Positions 15,745 through 48,125 of a stretch of 64,000 nucleotides of DNA are shown piece by piece. The first letter of the stretch is position 1. Each line of letters opens with the position of its first letter. The position numbers and the translations under genes are program-made. This stretch comes from Escherichia coli O157 typing phage 14, in the sequence record KP869112, one strand, 5' to 3'. The notes under the pieces were generated by a model, which saw only the letters and a program-made list of their open reading frames with translations, was not told the DNA's origin and did not search any database.

Positions 15745-16077
15745 ATGAAAGTACGCTTTATTGGTGAAACAATTCCTGTGCATCTCCGGTCGCCTGAGGA
15801 TTCTGCAGATCTTGCATCTCAGAAAGCGAGAGGCTATGATAAGAAAGTAACCTCAACCGGTGTAGTGCTTGAGGCTACTAGTCTACCTGACCCTGCTGCA
15901 TTCTTTAATCATTATGGGTACTATTTCAGCAATCTTATGAATATCGGTGAGCTTGTGTTTATTAGTGGTGGAGAGATTGTTAGCAAGCTTGGCGGCGATC
16001 CGGATGTCTTTCATGAAACCTGTCCTTTTGCATTTGTGGTAGGTTCAGATGTGGAAGTTATTGAGGAGGTGCGGTAA
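15745..16077 (+). CDS. small acidic protein, MKVR paralog family (cassette copy 2, gene b)
   Basis: ATG with GGGTGA RBS; ends VGSDVEVIEEVR. Confidence 0.5.
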   Translation: MKVRFIGETIPVHLRSPEDSADLASQKARGYDKKVTSTGVVLEATSLPDPAAFFNHYGYYFSNLMNIGELVFISGGEIVSKLGGDPDVFHETCPFAFVVGSDVEVIEEVR

Positions 16078-16472
16078 TGGTAAGCCTATACCGTGTTGAG
16101 TATAGCTCAGATACTGTATACAACGTAAGAAGCAAAGATCGCAGCAACAGAGTGCAAGAAATGTATGTTCTTGCCGACAGTCCGTTATCTGCAGCGTTCA
16201 AGGCAGGGGCTCTTGCATCTCGTTGGAAATTTGAAGGCGGATCTTTCTATGAAGAAACCCTTGAAGATTCTGTTGTTATTTCTTCTGTAGAGGTTTCAGA
16301 TGACTACGAAGGGAAAAAGTTCGTAATGCGGCACCCACACAGCAACATTGCGTACTACTGGGATGTTCTGAACAACGAGTGGACCCCAGATCTTCAGAAG
16401 GCCACTGTGCTAACACCGTTTTTGGCAGATAAGTTCCCACCAGAAGGTAATTTATCCGCACTGTTTCAGTAA
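16077..16472 (+). CDS. hypothetical protein (cassette copy 2, gene c)
   Basis: RBS GAGGAGG; paralog of 13872-14270. Confidence 0.5.
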   Translation: MVSLYRVEYSSDTVYNVRSKDRSNRVQEMYVLADSPLSAAFKAGALASRWKFEGGSFYEETLEDSVVISSVEVSDDYEGKKFVMRHPHSNIAYYWDVLNNEWTPDLQKATVLTPFLADKFPPEGNLSALFQ

Positions 16473-16490
16473 TTTTCTTGCACACAGGTG

Positions 16491-26326: not shown

Positions 26327-26611
26327 TTATTTATTGATAGCGTGCAGCGGGAAAGGTACGCCAGGTTGATAGATAACTTTTACAACCTCATCAGGGCAAA
26401 AGAAATTGCAGAATTCCCCCTGATAAGCCTCATCCTCTTTCAATTCTTCATCAACATACTCAAAAAAGTAGTCAACACTTGGATAATCTTGCCCTGGGTT
26501 ATAGTCAACCATTGTCAGGACCAGTTCAAGATCGTTGCGTAGGATATGCATACCCGCTTTTAAGTATTTTGCTTCCATTTCTACTACATCGCCAGCGGTA
26601 ACAATAGCCAT
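26327..26611 (-). CDS. hypothetical acidic protein
   Basis: RBS AGGAG before ATG. Confidence 0.5.
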   Translation of the reverse strand: MAIVTAGDVVEMEAKYLKAGMHILRNDLELVLTMVDYNPGQDYPSVDYFFEYVDEELKEDEAYQGEFCNFFCPDEVVKVIYQPGVPFPLHAINK

Positions 26612-26813
26612 GGTTTTAACTCCTATCTATCCGGTTAATGATTGGGGGGCCTCCCCCCTGACACGTCCTATTATCCATATTGTAGGGCTTGATGCAAGTA
26701 CTTCTTTAAAAAATTTTTAAGCGCCTTGGGGCCGCTGTAACGCTAAAATAATAAAGGCCATGCAACCGCATAGCCTTTATGTGATTATATCACTGCAGGA
26801 CCTGCTAGAGGCC

Positions 26814-27164
26814 TTATTTTGCATTCTTGCCTGTATTGCCGCCACGGTACCAGCGTTTGCGGTGAAAATGGTAATAATCACCCTCGGCATTAAACATCAG
26901 ATGATTTTCAATAACCAGCTTACGAAGGTGGGCCGGATCTTGTTCCATTCTTGCCAGATTCCGGCGGCTGTTACGTAAGCGTATAAATTCCATATTCAGG
27001 CCGTTGATTGCAGCATGGATGTCAAAGTAACCACCTTTGAGACGTTCACGCATGGCGTTAAGCTCAACACAATATACAGATTTCTCACAAATCAAGGTAT
27101 TAGCTAGGGCGCGGACCTGGGCAAGGGGGTTAAGCTCATTAAGGTAATATAGTTTGACTTTCAT
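26814..27164 (-). CDS. hypothetical protein
   Basis: ORF-track ORF. Confidence 0.45.
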   Translation of the reverse strand: MKVKLYYLNELNPLAQVRALANTLICEKSVYCVELNAMRERLKGGYFDIHAAINGLNMEFIRLRNSRRNLARMEQDPAHLRKLVIENHLMFNAEGDYYHFHRKRWYRGGNTGKNAK

Positions 27165-27181
27165 AAAATCGCCTGCTGAAA

Positions 27182-27490
27182 TTAGTTTGAGAAAACATCG
27201 TTCACAATAGCGATCACAATGCCGCCCACCTTGTCACGGTCAACAATGCACAAATCACCATGGATCATGCGGTAGTCTGGATGATCTTTCACAGAATAGT
27301 CAATAAGTGTTTTCTTGTCGTCCAGCTTCGTAACTTCCATTCTCATAACGATATGAGAATCATCAAAGGCATTATTCCGAAAAGTCATAGCCTGACCGCC
27401 AGGGCACCCGGTGATCTCCACTTCCACACCATCTACGATCTGACCATCAAAGAAATAAAGATTATTAGCCTGGATAAACATGTCTATCAC
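27182..27490 (-). CDS. hypothetical protein
   Basis: RBS AAGGAGTGA before ATG. Confidence 0.5.
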   Translation of the reverse strand: MIDMFIQANNLYFFDGQIVDGVEVEITGCPGGQAMTFRNNAFDDSHIVMRMEVTKLDDKKTLIDYSVKDHPDYRMIHGDLCIVDRDKVGGIVIAIVNDVFSN

Positions 27491-27527
27491 TCCTTGTTAA
27501 CTGCGTGGTATTTTAACAGGGTTTAAA

Positions 27528-27572
27528 TTTACTTTATTGATGGCCCTGGAGTCAAGGCCATCTAAAAATAAA
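27528..27572. repeat. 45 bp conserved intergenic repeat, copy 1 (TTTACTTTATTGATGGCCCTGGAGTCAAGGCCATCTAAAAATAAA)
   Basis: Near-identical to copies at 31399 and 32019; 7 bp hairpin GATGGCC/GGCCATC; lies immediately 3' of the stop codon of a minus-strand gene. Confidence 0.65.
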
Positions 27573-27574
27573 TT

Positions 27575-27775
27575 TTACAGGCCTACAATCTCTTTGATTC
27601 GTTTAACCGCTGCCTCAGCGCCTTGGGGGTAAAAATTATGGTAACCAATCACGCGAGTGATACTAATCGCCGTTTGATGATCTTCATAGTCGCCCTTGAA
27701 GATTTCTTGACCGTCAATCAGCACGGCAATTTTTTCTTCTTTTTTGAAGTTAATAACGCGGATATTGTTGCTCAT
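27575..27775 (-). CDS. hypothetical protein
   Basis: RBS GAAAGGAGAAAC. Confidence 0.5.
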   Translation of the reverse strand: MSNNIRVINFKKEEKIAVLIDGQEIFKGDYEDHQTAISITRVIGYHNFYPQGAEAAVKRIKEIVGL

Positions 27776-27914
27776 TTTGTTTCTCCTTTCTGGTTTTTGT
27801 GTTGGTGGGGATGTTTCCCCGTTGATTGTTATTATCCATATTGCGGACCAGATTGCAACACCCTGGAAGAAAAATTTTTTGAAAAAGTTAAGCCCCCCAT
27901 GATCGGGGGCGTTA

Positions 27915-28034
27915 TCAGTTACTTATAGCAATAAAGTACATTCCTACCCCTAACAATATTTCAAGGGCGATGATCTCAAGCCATACCATAACCTGGCGCA
28001 CCTTATCGGTGCGGGGCTTATCCTTGGTTGTCAT
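27915..28034 (-). CDS. small membrane peptide (39 aa, MTT start)
   Basis: RBS GGAGGAAAGGGGGAG before ATG; hydrophobic C-terminal half. Confidence 0.4.
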   Translation of the reverse strand: MTTKDKPRTDKVRQVMVWLEIIALEILLGVGMYFIAISN

Positions 28035-28276
28035 CGTCTCCCCCTTTCCTCCTGGTAGTAGTGACGTAGTTTACAATGGCCCCCAGGAGTACCATCACCA
28101 CGCACATCATAAGAAAAATTATCTCTGTCGTTGTTCGATCCATTGTTATAAAATTCCTCAAGATCAGGCCTGAAAATAAAGCGTTCGTTATTGAATCCAT
28201 CACGCCAGGCGGCTGGCTTCAAATCTTCATTAAAGGGATTAATTAACGTGGTATTATTTAAACGGCTGGCCCACAT
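28031..28276 (-). CDS. hypothetical protein
   Basis: RBS GAGAGGAATAG before ATG; overlaps alternative ORF 28018-28203 in another frame, so call is uncertain. Confidence 0.35.
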   Translation of the reverse strand: MWASRLNNTTLINPFNEDLKPAAWRDGFNNERFIFRPDLEEFYNNGSNNDRDNFSYDVRGDGTPGGHCKLRHYYQEERGRR

Positions 28277-28625
28277 ATTTTCTATTCCTCTCAAATAGGC
28301 GATCCGCCTCAGTTAAACATATCTCATGGGCTTGATCTCTGGTTTTAGCCTCATCAAAAACTTGTTGTGCCAGGCTGCAGCGCAAGGAGACCGGAAGATC
28401 ACTATAATAGGCGTTAACAAAAGTTTGGGCGTCATACAGGTCGGAAAATACTTTACCCTTCTTATTATTATCCTTGTCAACAATTGCAAGGATAACTAGT
28501 ACAATGGTTGCAACCACCCCCAAGAAAATAGATATAATAAACCATAAAAAGGCGGATCTACCCATCTTGCCAGCTATCCAGGCGTTGAACAAGGCAACTA
28601 CTACAGCCAAAATAATAAATTCCAT
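28254..28625 (-). CDS. membrane protein
   Basis: ATG with AAAGAGG RBS at internal Met; two TM helices; ORF-track start 28763 is an extension. Confidence 0.5.
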   Translation of the reverse strand: MEFIILAVVVALFNAWIAGKMGRSAFLWFIISIFLGVVATIVLVILAIVDKDNNKKGKVFSDLYDAQTFVNAYYSDLPVSLRCSLAQQVFDEAKTRDQAHEICLTEADRLFERNRKYVGQPFK

Positions 28626-28692
28626 TCTATGTACCTCTTTTGCAGTTCTGTTTAACAATAAGGCGGCAAATATGCCGCCGCCTGTTACCTGA

Positions 28693-29073
28693 TTAAAAAC
28701 TATCGCCGTAAATCTTCCCGCTTTCTGCCCACACCACCACGCGGGGCATACTATCCCACACATCTTGTTTTAGATTGAGCGCGTGCAATTCTTCGATGGT
28801 GCCCATACCGGGCACGGGCTGATTGTATACTGCAAAACGACCACCCGCATAATCATAGGCTAGAATTAAATCACACTGGATCATCTTTTTGATCATGGCA
28901 TTAAGCATGGCGTTAGCCGCATACTGATCACGTTTTAAAGGCAACTCTTTGATTAGTTTGCGATAGTTTTCGATATGGTCGCACACTGTTTCACGCGGAA
29001 GATCTTTCATATCCTCGCGAAAGGTAACCAGGTTAAACATAACGGTGTAAATAGCTTTGGTAGTGTTTTTCAT
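28693..29073 (-). CDS. hypothetical protein
   Basis: RBS AAAGAGGAAAAC. Confidence 0.5.
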   Translation of the reverse strand: MKNTTKAIYTVMFNLVTFREDMKDLPRETVCDHIENYRKLIKELPLKRDQYAANAMLNAMIKKMIQCDLILAYDYAGGRFAVYNQPVPGMGTIEELHALNLKQDVWDSMPRVVVWAESGKIYGDSF

Positions 29074-29162
29074 GATGTTTTCCTCTTTGTTTTGTGTGGG
29101 GGCAAACGTCTTGCCCCTTGAGTTTTAATATAGCAGGTTTTTAGGTTATTGCAACACTTTAT

Positions 29163-29786
29163 TTATGAAAAAGTCATCTCGCCATATTCATCCACATCAA
29201 ACCGCCAATCATTGGCCTCGATAAGGCCGATCAGGTTTTCGGTGGTGAATTGTTCAAGATAGGCTTGCTCCAGGTCTACGTAAACCTTGCGGGATAACTC
29301 CCGTACCGTCTCGGTGATCAGCTCTTCCAGCTCTTCAACTTTATCCTCTTGCTTGGTGGTCAGGTCTAGCCAATTGGTATCGATGCACCCGCCTATTGTG
29401 TTTTCGTGATGATAATGGCTAAACGGGATACGTTCAACGCTGGCTGACAGTTCGCCATCATGCATTGTGCCGAACAAGTGTCTAATTAAGCGGAATTTTG
29501 TAAGCGCTTTAACCTTACGCAAGAATTTTTCTAAGTTTACATTTTCAGCGCTAATTGATGCGCCGTCGCCTTGACACCAAAAGCCGGACCAATGTATTTC
29601 GGTATCTTCAAGGCCATACTCTGGAAAAACATATTCTTTATAGTACTCAATTACACTTTCTGCAAAAAAGTTATCCCCGCTGTGTTCTTCTCTTTCGCGG
29701 ACCATTTCAACAGCTTTTTCTTTTTGTTCGTCGGTCAGCACGTCGAAAGATAAATTGTAACCTGTAGTAATGTTAACGGTGGTCAT
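29163..29786 (-). CDS. hypothetical acidic protein
   Basis: RBS AATAGGAGAAAAT; no confident motif. Confidence 0.5.
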   Translation of the reverse strand: MTTVNITTGYNLSFDVLTDEQKEKAVEMVREREEHSGDNFFAESVIEYYKEYVFPEYGLEDTEIHWSGFWCQGDGASISAENVNLEKFLRKVKALTKFRLIRHLFGTMHDGELSASVERIPFSHYHHENTIGGCIDTNWLDLTTKQEDKVEELEELITETVRELSRKVYVDLEQAYLEQFTTENLIGLIEANDWRFDVDEYGEMTFS

Positions 29787-29820
29787 GATATTTTCTCCTA
29801 TTTTCTTTGTTAGTGGCGGG

Positions 29821-30094
29821 NNNNNNNNNNNNNNNNNNNNNNNNNNNNNNNNNNNNNNNNNNNNNNNNNNNNNNNNNNNNNNNNNNNNNNNNNNNNNNNN
29901 NNNNNNNNNNNNNNNNNNNNNNNNNNNNNNNNNNNNNNNNNNNNNNNNNNNNNNNNNNNNNNNNNNNNNNNNNNNNNNNNNNNNNNNNNNNNNNNNNNNN
30001 NNNNNNNNNNNNNNNNNNNNNNNNNNNNNNNNNNNNNNNNNNNNNNNNNNNNNNNNNNNNNNNNNNNNNNNNNNNNNNNNNNNNNNNNNNNNNN
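29821..30094. other. assembly gap (run of N)
   Basis: 274 consecutive n characters. Confidence 1.
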
Positions 30095-30247
30095 TTTAAT
30101 CACTGGACGGCCTTGCCAGTGCCCTTGGAGAAAGCGCGCTTTAACTTTATCGGTGGAACTATCACGCCACCAAACGGCTTTATTATTGCAGTAGTAAAAA
30201 TTATTCAGGACAACATCGACTTTATCAAAATTTTTTAATTTACGCAT
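30095..30247 (-). CDS. hypothetical protein, 3' end lost in assembly gap
   Basis: RBS GGAAGGAG before ATG at 30247; ORF runs into N gap. Confidence 0.4.
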
Positions 30248-30282
30248 GGCGTTTACTCCTTCCTTCTTGCTTTGATGTGGTT

Positions 30283-30311
30283 AGTATATCCGGACTATCC
30301 CAAGGTGTCAA
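30283..30311 (-). promoter_or_regulatory. sigma70-like promoter on minus strand (TTGACA, 17 nt, TATACT)
   Basis: Hexamers on minus strand ~35 nt upstream of the 30247 start. Confidence 0.5.
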
Positions 30312-30492
30312 GCTTTAAATAGAATCACTGTCAATAATATTTTTAACGCCATAAAACGGCCCTAGACGCTGTTTTCAGGTTAAGAAAGGGGATTGCATAG
30401 GTAGGGGCCTTTATGGCGCTTGTAGGGCCAACCAGGGGCGCTATCGGCGGGATAGAAATAAAAAGCCCCGCACAATGGCGGGGCGTTGGTTG

Positions 30493-30690
30493 CTATTTGT
30501 CTTTGTGGCGGTATCGTTCCGCCTGTCGTTCACGTTCCAAAAGCAGGCCCGGTAATTTGCGATCATAGTGATTTCTCCAGATCTTCCCGAACCTTTTCGG
30601 TTTATTCGGTTTATTGTTACGCTGGCGGCGTTCCGGCAGCTCTTCGGAATCGTGGGGGCGCTTTACAATTTTTTCGAAATTAATTTTCAT
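30493..30690 (-). CDS. small basic protein
   Basis: ATG with AAGGGGG RBS; arginine/lysine-rich. Confidence 0.4.
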   Translation of the reverse strand: MKINFEKIVKRPHDSEELPERRQRNNKPNKPKRFGKIWRNHYDRKLPGLLLERERQAERYRHKDK

Positions 30691-31033
30691 AAACGCCCCC
30701 TTTACTGATCTCAATATTTGCCTGAATCGCCCGGATACGACGTTTTATAGTCTCCTGATCCTTGCAATCATATCCCCAAAAGTCTACGATTTTTGCGCCG
30801 CCAGCCTTTAAGCGGTATAATGTTTCTTGCATCTTGTAAGCTGGGATCGGTCTCGGTGTTACCTGGTCCCCTTTCTCATCCTTGTACTTGATAATGTAGT
30901 CTTCATTGTCGTTGAATACCCAAAATGGGTATTCTGTAAGCGCGTTGCTCTCTTTTTCGTTTTTGGATTGGATCTTGTTTACAATTAAAGCCGTAGCAAT
31001 AGCGCCAATAATAAAACTTGCCCCGCTGATCAT
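30680..31033 (-). CDS. membrane-anchored protein
   Basis: ATG with AAAGGAGAAAG RBS; N-terminal TM helix. Confidence 0.45.
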   Translation of the reverse strand: MISGASFIIGAIATALIVNKIQSKNEKESNALTEYPFWVFNDNEDYIIKYKDEKGDQVTPRPIPAYKMQETLYRLKAGGAKIVDFWGYDCKDQETIKRRIRAIQANIEISKGGVYEN

Positions 31034-31109
31034 GTTACTTTCTCCTTTCATTGTGCTGATAAACTATCTTTATAGATGGCCCTGCTACCAGGACCACCGA
31101 AAAAACAGT

Positions 31110-31355
31110 TTATTTGACGATACCGACAAAACAGATCCCGCCTTCCCCTATATAGGCAACATCGGTAATTTTATAATTTGTCAAGATCCGCGTGTTCAGA
31201 TCATTAATAAAATCGGTCATCGCGTTGGTGTAGTTGTCTTCCGTGTCTAAGGCATAATCCCAGGTGTAAACCTTTTTACGTCCGAAGCCTTTTACCATGA
31301 TACGGGCGCTTTTGGTGTTGGTAGGGGCATAATATTTGGTGATTAGTGCTGCCAT
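31110..31355 (-). CDS. hypothetical protein
   Basis: RBS AGAGGAG. Confidence 0.5.
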   Translation of the reverse strand: MAALITKYYAPTNTKSARIMVKGFGRKKVYTWDYALDTEDNYTNAMTDFINDLNTRILTNYKITDVAYIGEGGICFVGIVK

Positions 31356-31398
31356 GGTTTTAACTCCTCTGAATTAGTTCAGTGTTAACAGTATAAAG

Positions 31399-31442
31399 TT
31401 TACTTTATTGATGGCCCTGAAGTCAAGGCCATCTAAAAATAA
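31399..31442. repeat. 45 bp conserved intergenic repeat, copy 2
   Basis: Near-identical to 27528 and 32019 copies; directly abuts stop of 31445 gene. Confidence 0.65.
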
Positions 31443-31444
31443 TC

Positions 31445-31786
31445 TTACTCGTTTTCTTCCAGCTCTGCAAGCTCTTCTTTTGCTTCTTCTAACTCTGTCT
31501 GTAGTTCCTGGTATTCTTCATCGTCCTCAATATCCAGGCTGTCGATGTAGTCGCTAAATCCGCAGCGGTAAGCGATAGGATCTAGCTCCTCGAGGATACG
31601 CGACGGAAGAAAAGAAATGTTTCCGATCATAATTTCGCCGTAGATCTCGTCTAACCATTCATCATAGTTTTCGTCGTACTTGTCCTCGTCGATTTCAAAG
31701 TTATCGATCTTATTCTCAAGGTCTGCGATCTGTTTTTTCAGCGCGGCGATCTGCATGGCTTTTTCTGCGGCGGTCATAGTAGTCAT
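31445..31786 (-). CDS. hypothetical acidic coiled-coil protein
   Basis: RBS AAAAGGAGAAAAAC. Confidence 0.5.
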   Translation of the reverse strand: MTTMTAAEKAMQIAALKKQIADLENKIDNFEIDEDKYDENYDEWLDEIYGEIMIGNISFLPSRILEELDPIAYRCGFSDYIDSLDIEDDEEYQELQTELEEAKEELAELEENE

Positions 31787-31865
31787 GGTGTTTTTCTCCT
31801 TTTGTGTGTTCTGGGAAGTTTTCCCGTCTATGTGTTTAGTATACTGATCTAAGTTAGCTTGTCAA

Positions 31866-31985
31866 TTAAAAGTTTAAGAAAAATTTTGCGATACCGTTGG
31901 CGCTACCCATCAACATTTGCGCCAGGATGTAACCAATGATGCAAACGATAATAGTTACCTTTGTGTGCTGGCGTGTAGTACTCAT
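31866..31985 (-). CDS. small hydrophobic peptide (39 aa)
   Basis: RBS AAGGGGG before ATG; TM helix. Confidence 0.4.
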   Translation of the reverse strand: MSTTRQHTKVTIIVCIIGYILAQMLMGSANGIAKFFLNF

Positions 31986-32018
31986 CTTTAAGCCCCCTTT
32001 CCGCTCAACTGTGGTTAG

Positions 32019-32063
32019 TTTACTTTATTGATGGCCCTGAAGTCAAGGCCATCTAAAAATAAA
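32019..32063. repeat. 45 bp conserved intergenic repeat, copy 3
   Basis: Near-identical to copies 1 and 2; directly abuts stop of 32065 gene. Confidence 0.65.
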
Positions 32064-32064
32064 C

Positions 32065-32469
32065 TCAGTAAGTTTTCAGTACTTTACCGTCCAACCTGTC
32101 AAGCTGGATCTCGATAGCTGCAGAAAACCTATTGTAAACCACATCGCCCATAGAATCCAACCAGTCTATGACATTATACACTTGCTCTTTGTTCTTGCAG
32201 GTCCGGATCCGTTTCATGATGTAAGCCGGATCAATATTGGTACTCTCGTTGGTGTTCCCCTGTACCTGGTTTGCCGTATTAGTTACATCTTTAATGGCCT
32301 TTACCACCACCTGGAATGGCTTTAAGGTGCCTTTTGCGTTCATCTCACGCGCTTTTGCGGCGCGGTTGTTATATGTTACACAACGGCGGCAAATGTTGAC
32401 CAAATGCATATCAATAATTTTTTCATCGTTTGCCAGTTCGTTCATGATGCGGCGTACGTTCTTATTCAT
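32065..32469 (-). CDS. hypothetical protein
   Basis: RBS AAAGGAAAAAG. Confidence 0.5.
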   Translation of the reverse strand: MNKNVRRIMNELANDEKIIDMHLVNICRRCVTYNNRAAKAREMNAKGTLKPFQVVVKAIKDVTNTANQVQGNTNESTNIDPAYIMKRIRTCKNKEQVYNVIDWLDSMGDVVYNRFSAAIEIQLDRLDGKVLKTY

Positions 32470-32552
32470 GATCTTTTTCCTTTGTGTTGGCGGGAAACAT
32501 TCCCGCCTTTTGTGCCTAGTTTACTTTAATTTTGCAGCGTGTCAATAATTTT

Positions 32553-32951
32553 TTATTCATGGGCGCATGTTACAATGTGCTTTTTATAGCCCAGGTGGTC
32601 AGCAAGTGCCGACAAAAACTCTTCTTCGTAGATCCAGCCGTCGGCAGTGATCCCCATAGCATTTAATGCGCTCTCAAGTGCTGCGTTAGCTTTATCATAA
32701 CCGTGACCGCTCGCCTTGCCGCCAGTATAGCCGTACTTATTGTTCTTGTTGTCGTGTATCCAAAAAACGCAGTAGTAAGTGTTCCCGCTGGCGGCGGCAT
32801 AATACCGGATCTCAGCTACTTCGTGCAAATTATTGTCATCGTCCAGGCCCACCAGATTATAAGCCTTGTAAAATCCACGATCACGGCGGCAGTTCTTGAC
32901 ATCAGAAAAAGAAAAGTCTGCATTATCAAAATTAAAGGTAGTGGTTTTCAT
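32553..32951 (-). CDS. hypothetical protein
   Basis: ORF-track ORF with purine-rich upstream region. Confidence 0.5.
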   Translation of the reverse strand: MKTTTFNFDNADFSFSDVKNCRRDRGFYKAYNLVGLDDDNNLHEVAEIRYYAAASGNTYYCVFWIHDNKNNKYGYTGGKASGHGYDKANAALESALNAMGITADGWIYEEEFLSALADHLGYKKHIVTCAHE

Positions 32952-33015
32952 GATTTTATCCTCTTAGTGTCTTTTGTGCTTTTAGTGTATTTGGTGTCGG
33001 ACTATATGTCAATAC

Positions 33016-33213
33016 TTATTTTTTATTAAACCAGTGGTTGATCTGACCTTTTGTCAGGGCGCAACGATTAAGCTGTTGCAGGGTATAGCTATGACCGCGA
33101 CGAAATTTATAAAGGCCTTGCCCGTTGTTGATGGTTACATCCACCCGGCAAATCACTTGATTGGTGACCACCTGGCGAGTGTTGCGACGTACTTTGATCC
33201 CGTATGCGTTCAT
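33016..33213 (-). CDS. hypothetical basic protein
   Basis: ATG with AAAGAGGATAAA RBS; ORF-track start 33291 is a TTG lying inside the promoter -35. Confidence 0.45.
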   Translation of the reverse strand: MNAYGIKVRRNTRQVVTNQVICRVDVTINNGQGLYKFRRGHSYTLQQLNRCALTKGQINHWFNKK

Positions 33214-33262
33214 AAATTTATCCTCTTTACTGGTTAGTGCGGTGTTGTTCACCTTGTAGGGT

Positions 33263-33291
33263 AATAATACCATGATTAACCTTGTTGTCAA
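33263..33291 (-). promoter_or_regulatory. sigma70-like promoter on minus strand (TTGACA, 17 nt, ATTATT)
   Basis: Hexamers on minus strand at the head of the 23-33 kb small-gene block. Confidence 0.5.
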
Positions 33292-33557
33292 CGACTATTT
33301 TAAATTATTTTTATGATAGAATCCACCTGCCGCCCCCGCCAGGTTAACCACCATTTTTTCGTACTCTTCTTTATGTTCCAACGCTCCCGCCATAGCCTTT
33401 TCAACCAGGGCGATAGCCTCAGCGTCATTAATCGCTACATTTTCCAGGGGATCATATTACCTTTCATTTTTGTACCTCCTCTCCAGTTGTTGCCTACCCT
33501 ATAGCATAGCCCTACCAGGTTTGCAAGCTTTCACTCTCCCCTGCCAGGCTGGCCCCG

Positions 33558-33959: not shown

Positions 33960-34440
33960 TCCCATATAGAAATTTTAAAAATCCATTTCTGAAAACGAAA
34001 AATCGATTTCGTCCCCAAAAATTTCAGGTCGAGATCCGGAACGATTTCCAGAAAATCCGATTCAGAAAACGAAAAACAGATCGAGTACTGAGAAATTTAT
34101 CGAGAAAAATTTTCAGAAAATCCAAGCCCTGAAATGAAAAGTAGATCGAGTACCTGGAAAGCTGCACCGCAACTTCAAGATAGTGGTTAGATTGTTACCA
34201 TAGAAGGTCAAGGGTAAGTGGAGGAAGTTCTGGTAGAGGGAGGTTAGCATGTGTGGGAAATCTATAATGGTGGCCTGGAATATGGTGCAAACGATAGGAT
34301 GAGTTATTCAGCTTGTCGCGCCTACTCTGAAAAATCCATTTTAGTTTTCGATCCATTTTCTGATTTTCTAAGAATTTTAAAATATCCAGCCTGGTGAAAT
34401 ATCAAAAGGAGGAAATCCATTTTAGAAATCCCCCTTATAC
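33960..34440. repeat. AT-rich repeat tract: AAATCCATTTT (x4), TTCAGAAAACGAAAAA-like (x2), GATCGAGTAC (x2), CAGAAAATCC (x2)
   Basis: Short direct repeats read in a ~0.5 kb ORF-free stretch. Confidence 0.5.
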
Positions 34441-37962: not shown

Positions 37963-37991
37963 CAAAAATGCCCCACCCTTTCGGGCAGGGC
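37963..37991 (-). terminator. intrinsic terminator (GCCCTGCCC-GAAA-GGGTGGGGC + UUUUUG on minus strand)
   Basis: Hairpin with GAAA tetraloop and U tract 3' of the 38007 gene; identical hairpin recurs at 48099. Confidence 0.65.
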
Positions 37992-48098: not shown

Positions 48099-48125
48099 AA
48101 AAAGCCCCACCCTTTCGGGCAGGGC
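48099..48125 (-). terminator. intrinsic terminator (same GCCCTGCCC-GAAA-GGGTGGGGC hairpin as 37963)
   Basis: Identical hairpin plus U tract 3' of the 48132 gene. Confidence 0.65.

Follow-up and report, generated by a model that had tools for sequence, protein, structure and literature searches.

Repeat copies in the leftward early region

We analyzed a 64-kb stretch of the genome of Escherichia coli O157 typing phage 14 (KP869112), referred to here as the window and searched on both strands (128 kb), and describe an intercistronic repeat in its early region that resembles the RNase III processing sites of phage T7. The region matches rV5-like E. coli myoviruses (genus Vequintavirus) at 93 to 95% identity, among them rV5_ev168, FFH2, EdH4, and some 120 further records. 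The early genes lie here on the minus strand and run leftward, and the element is read throughout as minus-strand RNA; open reading frames (ORFs) are named after their rV5 homologues.

A 44-nucleotide (nt) pattern is found exactly at 27528-27571, 31399-31442, and 32019-32062 (plus-strand coordinates) with a single G/A difference, and it had no match in 100 dinucleotide shuffles of the window with up to three mismatches permitted, in agreement with the three near-identical copies of the original prediction. The repeat is real, but the length of 45 bp first given to it is too short, as a repeat finder extends the unit to about 49 nt (copy 1, 27526-27574; copy 2, 31397-31445; copy 3, 32017-32065). 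The same tool returned a previously missed fourth copy at 31062-31110, which has diverged (65% identity). A covariance model built from the four window copies only (model R1) detected no further members in either the window or the complete rV5 genome. The rV5 reference contains exactly four copies as well, between ORF178/179, ORF190/191, ORF191/192, and ORF193/194, all inside a 4.4-kb portion of the leftward early region, and none elsewhere in its 138 kb.

All four copies start at the stop codon of a minus-strand ORF (27577-27575 for copy 1, 31447-31445 for copy 2, 32067-32065 for copy 3, and 31112-31110 for copy 4), with the stop at the base of the hairpin described below, and the gap from the end of the copy to the start codon of the next ORF is 38 to 53 nt (41 to 53 nt for the three near-identical copies). 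The stop codons and ORFs confirm the placement first proposed, abutting the stop of a leftward gene and ahead of the next one. Copy 1 lies between the homologues of ORF179 and ORF178, copy 2 between those of ORF192 and ORF191, and copy 3 between those of ORF194 and ORF193, all three on the minus strand and of what we call type A. Copy 4 (type B, diverged), which as a folded element spans 31059-31113 on the minus strand, separates the homologues of ORF191 and ORF190.

The four intercistronic sites fall within units bounded by sigma-70 promoters and canonical terminators. The first unit runs from a promoter (32545) through ORF194, copy 3, ORF193, the promoter P192 (31865), ORF192, copy 2, ORF191, copy 4, ORF190, and ORF189 to a terminator (30484), while the second, following a terminator at 27910, comprises ORF179, copy 1, and ORF178 and extends to a terminator at 26780. 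The promoter-like site upstream of the ORF194 homologue (32518-32545, minus strand; TTGACA-N16-TAAACT, 10/12 consensus positions) likely starts a transcript running through copy 3. The near-consensus sigma-70 promoter at 31838-31865 (minus strand; TTGACA-N16-TATACT, 11/12) corresponds to P192 of the rV5 annotation, and its transcript would include ORF192, copy 2, ORF191, copy 4, ORF190, and ORF189. The ORF192-ORF189 operon ends at a canonical intrinsic terminator (30465-30484, minus strand), a GC stem with UUUUUAUUU, which is annotated in EdH4 and Murica. The element is absent from both the 33 promoters and the 20 terminators reported in the rV5 genome paper (PMC3606486). It also lacks any mark in the EdH4 annotation, and an Rfam E-value scan of positions 26500-33000 returned no family at the copies.

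A two-tier hairpin conserved as RNA

On the minus strand, every copy folds into an AU-rich lower stem of 7 to 13 bp and a 10-bp upper stem that closes a tetraloop; the two stems are separated by an internal loop of 2 nt (5' strand) and 3 nt (3' strand). The lower stem is formed by an upstream U-rich run that pairs with a downstream A-rich run through A-U and G·U pairs. In copies 1 to 3 the upper stem is GAUGGCCUUG/CAGGGCCAUC, with one U·G, and the G/A difference among these exact copies falls within the tetraloop; in copy 4 the upper stem is GGUGGUCCUG/CAGGGCCAUC, with two G·U. The upper stem and loop occupy 27562-27539 in copy 1 (whose lower stem pairs 27574-27565 with 27535-27526), 31433-31410 in copy 2, 32053-32030 in copy 3, and 31098-31075 in copy 4. 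Copy 2 has one lower-stem mismatch (A11xA55), and copy 4 has a 13-bp lower stem, the internal loop 5'-UC/3'-UAU, and the tetraloop GUAG. The 7-bp hairpin of the original prediction is thus present as a DNA palindrome, but it gives only part of the RNA structure, with its 10-bp upper stem and a second, lower stem.

This structure is specific to the transcribed strand. Fold z-scores against shuffles range from -4.2 to -8.0 on the minus strand (-4.2 for copy 1, with a minimum free energy [MFE] of -25.2; -6.5 for copy 2; -6.4 for copy 3; and -8.0 for copy 4, with an MFE of -28.8) and from -2.6 to -3.3 on the plus strand, where C·A mismatches take the place of the G·U pairs. With model R1, the plus strand falls about 45 bits short of the minus strand.

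Conservation was assessed in 50 copies, 43 of them distinct, from 14 sources. Among the distinct copies, 98.3% of the pair cells show standard pairing, versus 33 to 58% when the 3' partners are slid by one to three columns. Double-sided changes occur at four lower-stem pairs (A-U/G-C, U-A/C-G, U-A/A-U, and A-U/U-A), and four of the five single substitutions in the upper stem preserve the RNA pairing (C to U giving G·U, G to A giving U-A, and A to G giving U·G). Free variation is concentrated at tetraloop positions 3 and 4 (ACUU, ACUC, ACAC, ACCC, and ACGC; GUAG, GUAA, GUUG, and GCUG). The independent covariation events are few, because much of the covariation divides copy 4 from copies 1 to 3, but the evidence is uniform in direction.

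The same data bear on a function at the DNA level, since the palindrome could serve as the operator of a dimeric phage protein or form a cruciform or hairpin in replication or recombination. The element does hold a perfect 7-bp inverted repeat, spaced by 10 bp, that overlaps a -35-like motif, its copies are found at recombination junctions (see below), and Lamassu/DdmABC can sense the palindromes of T7 RNase III sites when these act as hairpins in DNA (PMC11707656). However, the departures from symmetry are always G·T on the minus strand and never A·C, the center of the palindrome (the tetraloop) varies freely, and the second helix with compensatory changes and the fixed asymmetric internal loop would be superfluous for an operator. 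We consider a DNA-level role extremely unlikely. The protein-binding site that had been suggested among the possible functions is likewise disfavored at the DNA level, since the imperfections pair as G·U on just the minus strand and the U-rich and A-rich flanks covary like the two strands of a helix.

Intrinsic terminators, too, have a stable, GC-rich hairpin after a stop codon, and a weak or unconventional terminator or attenuator, in which the extended hairpin and a short UUU(A) run (copies 1, 2, and 4) would partly stop transcription, has to be weighed. The upper stem is stable and GC rich, the two-tier hairpin is followed by UUUAAAC in copy 1, CUUUAUAC in copy 2, and UUUAUCAG in copy 4, and the annotation of Murica marks copies 1 and 4 as 45-nt terminators. 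Yet an intrinsic terminator has a U tract of about 7 to 9 nt 3' of its GC stem, while here AAUAAAGUAAA or UAUAAAGAUAG comes after the stem; no U tract adjoins it, as the 3-nt loop and the 8-nt A-rich strand intervene, and in copy 3 the hairpin is followed by CUAACCAC. The U-rich run of the element is upstream and pairs with the downstream A-rich run, and the sites are inside operons, where an efficient stop would leave ORF193, ORF191, ORF190/189, and ORF178 without a transcript. A terminator scan called none of the four copies, yet it called the canonical terminators nearby, in line with the first remark that the coding strand has no U tract and that this is not a classic terminator; the EdH4 and rV5 annotations do not call the copies either. 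Because no U tract is present, we discarded this reading as very unlikely, even though Murica annotates two of the copies in this way.

Resemblance to the RNase III sites of T7

In T7-like podoviruses, the processing of early messages by RNase III is textbook knowledge. We take the T7 cuts to lie at 890 (R0.3), 1468 (R0.5), 3138 (R1), 5887 (R1.1), and 6450 (R1.3), coordinates that reportedly come from the work of Dunn and Studier in 1983; all but that of R1.1 were checked against folds only. The RefSeq record of T7 does not annotate RNase III sites. When folded here, R0.3, R1, and R1.1 all gave a lower stem and an upper stem of 9 to 10 bp with G·U, separated by a 2/3-nt internal loop and capped by a tetraloop; the cut falls where the 3' strand of the internal loop ends. 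The MFE fold of R0.5 is in a slightly shifted register, with a loop of 5 nt and a bulge of 3 nt, but its sequence is compatible with the common plan and was aligned accordingly, while R1.3 folds without an internal loop. The cut of R1.1 (..CCUUUAU|GAUUG..) is consistent with the 47-nt and 13-nt products of the 60-nt R1.1 RNA (PMC6121014).

The coincidences with the element extend to individual nucleotides. The internal loop of T7 R1 (5'-UA/3'-AAU) is identical to that of copies 1 to 3, and the one shared by R0.3, R0.5, and R1.1 (5'-UC/3'-UAU) is identical to that of copy 4. The distal box of R1.1 is UA/UG, the same as in copies 1 to 3 (U29-A36 and U28·G37), and that of R0.5, U-A plus C-G, is the same as in copy 4. 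In both phages the sites are intercistronic, lie just after a stop codon in early transcripts of the host polymerase, and are present as several paralogous copies per genome; the T7 sites after genes 0.4, 0.7, 1, and 1.2 reproduce the stop-codon placement. On the other hand, the stem sequence is AAGGUCAUUC.. in T7 and GAUGGCCUUG.. here, the lower stem of the element is nearly all A-U/G·U, and the carrier is a 137-kb myovirus (Vequintavirinae) with only four copies, within 4.5 kb, which are known from sequence and structure.

The determinants described for E. coli RNase III are a helix of about two turns (roughly 20 to 22 bp), at least 11 bp between the cut and the tetraloop, and a distal box that is optimal as UA/UG, while G-C or C-G at position 2 of the proximal box or beside the scissile bond acts as an antideterminant (PMC1540722). 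Internal loops restrict cutting to one phosphodiester, leaving a protective 3' hairpin, and the sequence of the tetraloop is no requirement (PMC1540722). The 10-bp upper stem and the 7- to 13-bp lower stem of the element together give about two turns, and between the tetraloop and the position aligned to the T7 cut there are 10 Watson-Crick or G·U pairs and one loop "pair." The distal box is UA/UG in copies 1 to 3 and UA/CG in copy 4. In the proximal box, copies 1 to 3 have A-U at position 2 and an A/A mismatch beside the cut, both compatible with RNase III. The free variation of the tetraloop among copies fits the indifference of the enzyme to its sequence.

Reciprocal profile searches

The resemblance was also examined with model R1 and with a second covariance model (R2), built from T7 R0.3, R0.5, R1, and R1.1 only. 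On both strands of a 6-kb piece of early T7 DNA (12 kb in total, unfiltered), the best four matches of R1, which scores copy 1 at 83.6 bits and copy 4 at 77 bits, were R0.3, R1, R0.5, and R1.1, all on the right strand and in register; R1.3 was not recovered. Over the whole T7 genome, three of the best four were R0.3, R18.5, and R1. By a rough estimate, the chance of random R1 matches landing on known T7 sites is about 1e-6 or less.

The reverse test is the cleaner one. The four best matches of R2 in the window (64 kb, both strands, unfiltered) were the four copies, at full length, on the minus strand, and in register, with E-values of 1.1e-4 for copy 3 (28.7 bits, the best match in the window), 1.7e-4 for copy 1 (27.9 bits), 1e-3 for copy 4 (24.9 bits), and 0.09 for copy 2 (17.6 bits). 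In its alignment, the UAU cleavage loop of T7 is placed opposite the AAU/UAU of the element. In the complete rV5 genome, searched with default filters, copies 1, 3, and 2 were among five matches.

The fifth R2 match (26733-26800, E ~1) was rejected as a member, as it is a simple hairpin of 13 bp that lacks an internal loop, has a U-rich tail, and is terminator-like. The hairpin itself (26751-26780, minus strand) is formed by AUAAAGGCUAUGC-GGUU-GCAUGGCCUUUAU followed by UAUUUUA, is annotated as a terminator in EdH4, and has GGCCUUUAU in common with T7 RNase III sites; its R2 E-value is ~1 here and 0.13 in rV5.

Distribution, recombination, and promoter-like features

A blastn search with one copy against 50,697 phage records gave real matches in Vequintavirus genomes only. 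Matches in Streptococcus, Salmonella, and other records were short chance matches inside coding genes. A degenerate upper-stem pattern searched in IMG/VR hit 41 loci, with true members, as judged by the covariance model, in three rV5-like contigs only and the rest at 33 bits or less (pattern forced). By tblastn, the homologues of ORF194 and ORF189 are both confined to Vequintavirus, so there are no orthologous intergenic sites from other genera to align. As a side note, 17 GenBank records within MG065635-MG065690 labeled "Campylobacter phage" (host C. jejuni) are 94 to 100% identical to positions 26500-33500 of the window, and their host label seems doubtful.

In some genomes the blastn matches number one, two, or four rather than three, and two relatives contain hybrid copies. 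In the IMG/VR contig L025 (208-272), the copy is a chimera of the 5' flank of copy 3 and the 3' flank of copy 2, and the segment equivalent to 32016-31446 of the window, with ORF193, P192, and ORF192, is missing. In phage 241Ecol014PP (L048; 4495-4559), a chimera of copies 2 and 4 goes together with the loss of ORF191 (approximately 31392-31085), and two covarying lower-stem pairs have been turned into mismatches. Judging from these junctions, the repeats act as recombination sites regardless of any function as RNA, with intervening genes deleted in some relatives. Such a role is compatible with RNase III processing and does not discriminate between the explanations.

Recombination of this kind is also known from the promoter-early stem-loops (PeSLs) of T4-type phages (RB49/phi1, T4/PST, KVP40/nt-1), which combine an early sigma-70 promoter with an attenuating stem-loop (PMC2839356, PMC4122927). 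They likewise are motifs of about 50 to 100 bp that extend from a stop codon to the next Shine-Dalgarno sequence or ATG in an ORFan-rich early region, contain an AT-rich run and a stem-loop with G·T, and recombine copy to copy, with chimeras and the loss or gain of the flanked ORFans. If the element were a cassette of this type (AT-rich tract, TTGACN, 18-nt spacer, TAAAYT, and stem-loop), each downstream gene would have its own transcription start, and cassette recombination would shuffle the ORFans. Copies 1 to 3 do have a coding-strand sigma-70-like match (TTGACT-N18-TAAACT/TAAATT, 9/12), with an AT-rich run upstream and the next start codon 30 to 45 nt away, and TTGAC is kept in the orthologues, in some as TTGACA. 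PeSLs commonly carry their stem-loop between the -35 and -10 boxes, with G·T pairs (PMC2839356), and the deletions in L025 and L048 are of the type reported for them.

Nevertheless, shuffled sequence yields about 36 matches at the 9/12 level per 32 kb (approximately once per 900 nt) and an 18-nt spacer is suboptimal, whereas the genuine early promoters nearby score 11 to 12 of 12 with spacers of 16 to 17 nt, and the element is absent from the promoters in Table S4 of rV5, which required 10/12. Copy 4 lacks TTGAC (best match ~7 to 8 of 12 by inspection) yet keeps the whole hairpin, and the "AT-rich tract" and the "-10" covary as a helix, which a promoter does not need. Read-through from the mapped promoters can express all the downstream genes, and the T7 RNase III profile detects the element. 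In the PeSLs of T4-type phages, experiments have shown both a strong sigma-70 promoter of consensus type and a stem-loop that terminates, while the promoter match of the element is weak or, in copy 4, absent, its stem-loop has no U tract or terminator tail, and what is conserved is a two-tier hairpin of the RNase III type. We therefore regard a PeSL-like cassette as unlikely and rejected promoter activity as the main function, given a chance-level match that copy 4 lacks. The promoter for a modified polymerase that had been offered as an option finds no support, and rV5-type phages use host sigma-70 promoters throughout (PMC3606486).

A putative RNase III processing signal

Taken together, we consider it likely that every copy serves in the polycistronic early mRNAs as an RNase III processing signal of the T7 type (R1.1/R1-like), which would split long early transcripts into messages for single genes. 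Among the roles initially suggested, that of an RNA processing site is strongly supported by the T7 RNase III architecture, the recognition features, and the profile match. In the proposed mechanism, the host RNA polymerase would start at the near-consensus sigma-70 promoters and read leftward through the element, and the RNA would fold into the hairpin of about two turns, with its AU-rich lower stem, 2/3-nt loop, 10-bp upper stem, and tetraloop. The host RNase III would then bind via the distal box beside the loop (U-A and U·G) and the proximal pairs. We propose that the internal loop, being asymmetric, would limit the cut to the 3' strand, and the predicted position is after ..CAUC-AAU/UAU. 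By register with the T7 sites, the cuts are predicted at 27536/27535 (copy 1, minus strand ..CAUCAAU|AAAG..), 31407/31406 (copy 2), 32027/32026 (copy 3), and 31072/31071 (copy 4), all on the minus strand. The upstream message would then end with its stop codon and a protective 3' hairpin, while the downstream message would start 38 to 53 nt ahead of its own start codon, and the cleavage may stabilize the messages and possibly affect translation. As a side effect, the four repeats of ~50 bp provide patches of homology, through which recombination has removed the intervening genes in some relatives.

Several points weigh against this interpretation. Position 2 of the proximal box is G·U in copy 4, whose distal box also lacks the U·G, and a purine 2-amino group at proximal position 2 inhibited binding in a minimal substrate (PMC1540722). 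The internal loop of R1.1 is usually drawn as 4/5 nt, so that the 2/3-nt loop of the element is smaller (PMC6121014). The lower stem, nearly pure A-U/G·U, may be of marginal stability where it has 7 bp, as in copy 2, and this copy reaches only an E-value of 0.09 with R2. The single R1 matches on T7 are weak (E = 0.26 to 8), and the information lies in their positions. The 45-nt terminators annotated in Murica at copies 1 and 4 must be counted here as well. Finally, the cleavage coordinates of T7 other than that of R1.1 were checked against folds only, and the whole case is built on sequence and structure.

The searchable literature yielded neither transcript mapping for rV5-like phages nor any mention of rV5 together with RNase III. 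As far as that literature shows, T7-type RNase III sites would be a previously unreported feature of rV5-like phages.

Neighboring genes and their relatives

Two genes of the operon that contains copies 2 and 4 have relatives in T7-like phages. The ORF189 homologue (30493-30714, minus strand), located two genes downstream of copy 4, belongs to the T7 gene 1.1 family (PF08200, "Bacteriophage 1.1 protein"; E-value of 2e-9, 38.2 bits versus a cutoff of 21). In T7, gene 1.1 follows the site R1.1. The ORF191 homologue (31110-31355, minus strand), bracketed by copies 2 and 4, is a member of the phrog_3199 family, with distant homologues in Seuratvirus, Pseudomonas myophages, a Vectrevirus, and a T7-like Klebsiella phage.

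In two Autographiviridae, the Przondovirus that infects Klebsiella and the SP6-like Vectrevirus (L056, 2913-3300; L057, 2925-3192), the start of the ORF191 homologue lies some 16 nt downstream of a T7-type RNase III hairpin, which mirrors the arrangement of copy 2 and ORF191. R2 scores these hairpins at 47.9 bits (E = 2.5e-10) in the Klebsiella phage and at 19.6 bits (E = 0.008) in the Vectrevirus. No T7-type hairpin was found beside the ORF191 homologue of the Seuratvirus WildeMaa.

A tentative extension is that the hairpins could be portable boundaries of early-gene cassettes exchanged between Autographiviridae (T7/SP6-like) and the unrelated Vequintavirinae (rV5-like). Each small host takeover gene would travel with its own processing signal, which would turn it into a stable message independent of its neighbors, and within the recipient genome the hairpins would afterwards serve as patches of homology for the gain and loss of cassettes. 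We find this possible, although somewhat doubtful; if true, hairpins acting as cassette boundaries would be the RNA-processing analogue of the PeSL promoter cassettes.

Other features of the region

Three direct repeats of about 62 nt, with a spacing of 65 to 74 nt and 61 to 73% identity, are located in an intergenic stretch of the early region (33960-34160). Two terminator-type hairpins (AAAAWGCCCCACCCTTTCGGGCAGGGC) at 37965-37991 and 48099-48125 are 96% identical despite being 10 kb apart. In the rV5 record (DQ832317, L002), two "terminator" features look like annotation slips, as one covers a whole ORF (16195-16479, 285 nt) and the other (15810-15855) lies inside ORF195.

Implications for rV5-like phages

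The rV5-like myoviruses are widely used in phage therapy and in O157 biocontrol, and the genes of their early region are almost all unknown. If our interpretation is true, the sites would define the early mRNA units (ORF194, ORF193, ORF192, ORF191, ORF190-189, ORF179, ORF178, and so on), the deposited "terminator" annotations would need correcting, and gene expression would be predicted to depend on the rnc gene of the host. Palindromes of this kind are known to trigger Lamassu/DdmABC defence (PMC11707656), so the sites may also be a liability on some hosts. The T7 gp1.1 homologue and the hairpin-following relatives of ORF191 point to an exchange across families of cassettes that would carry their processing signals with them.

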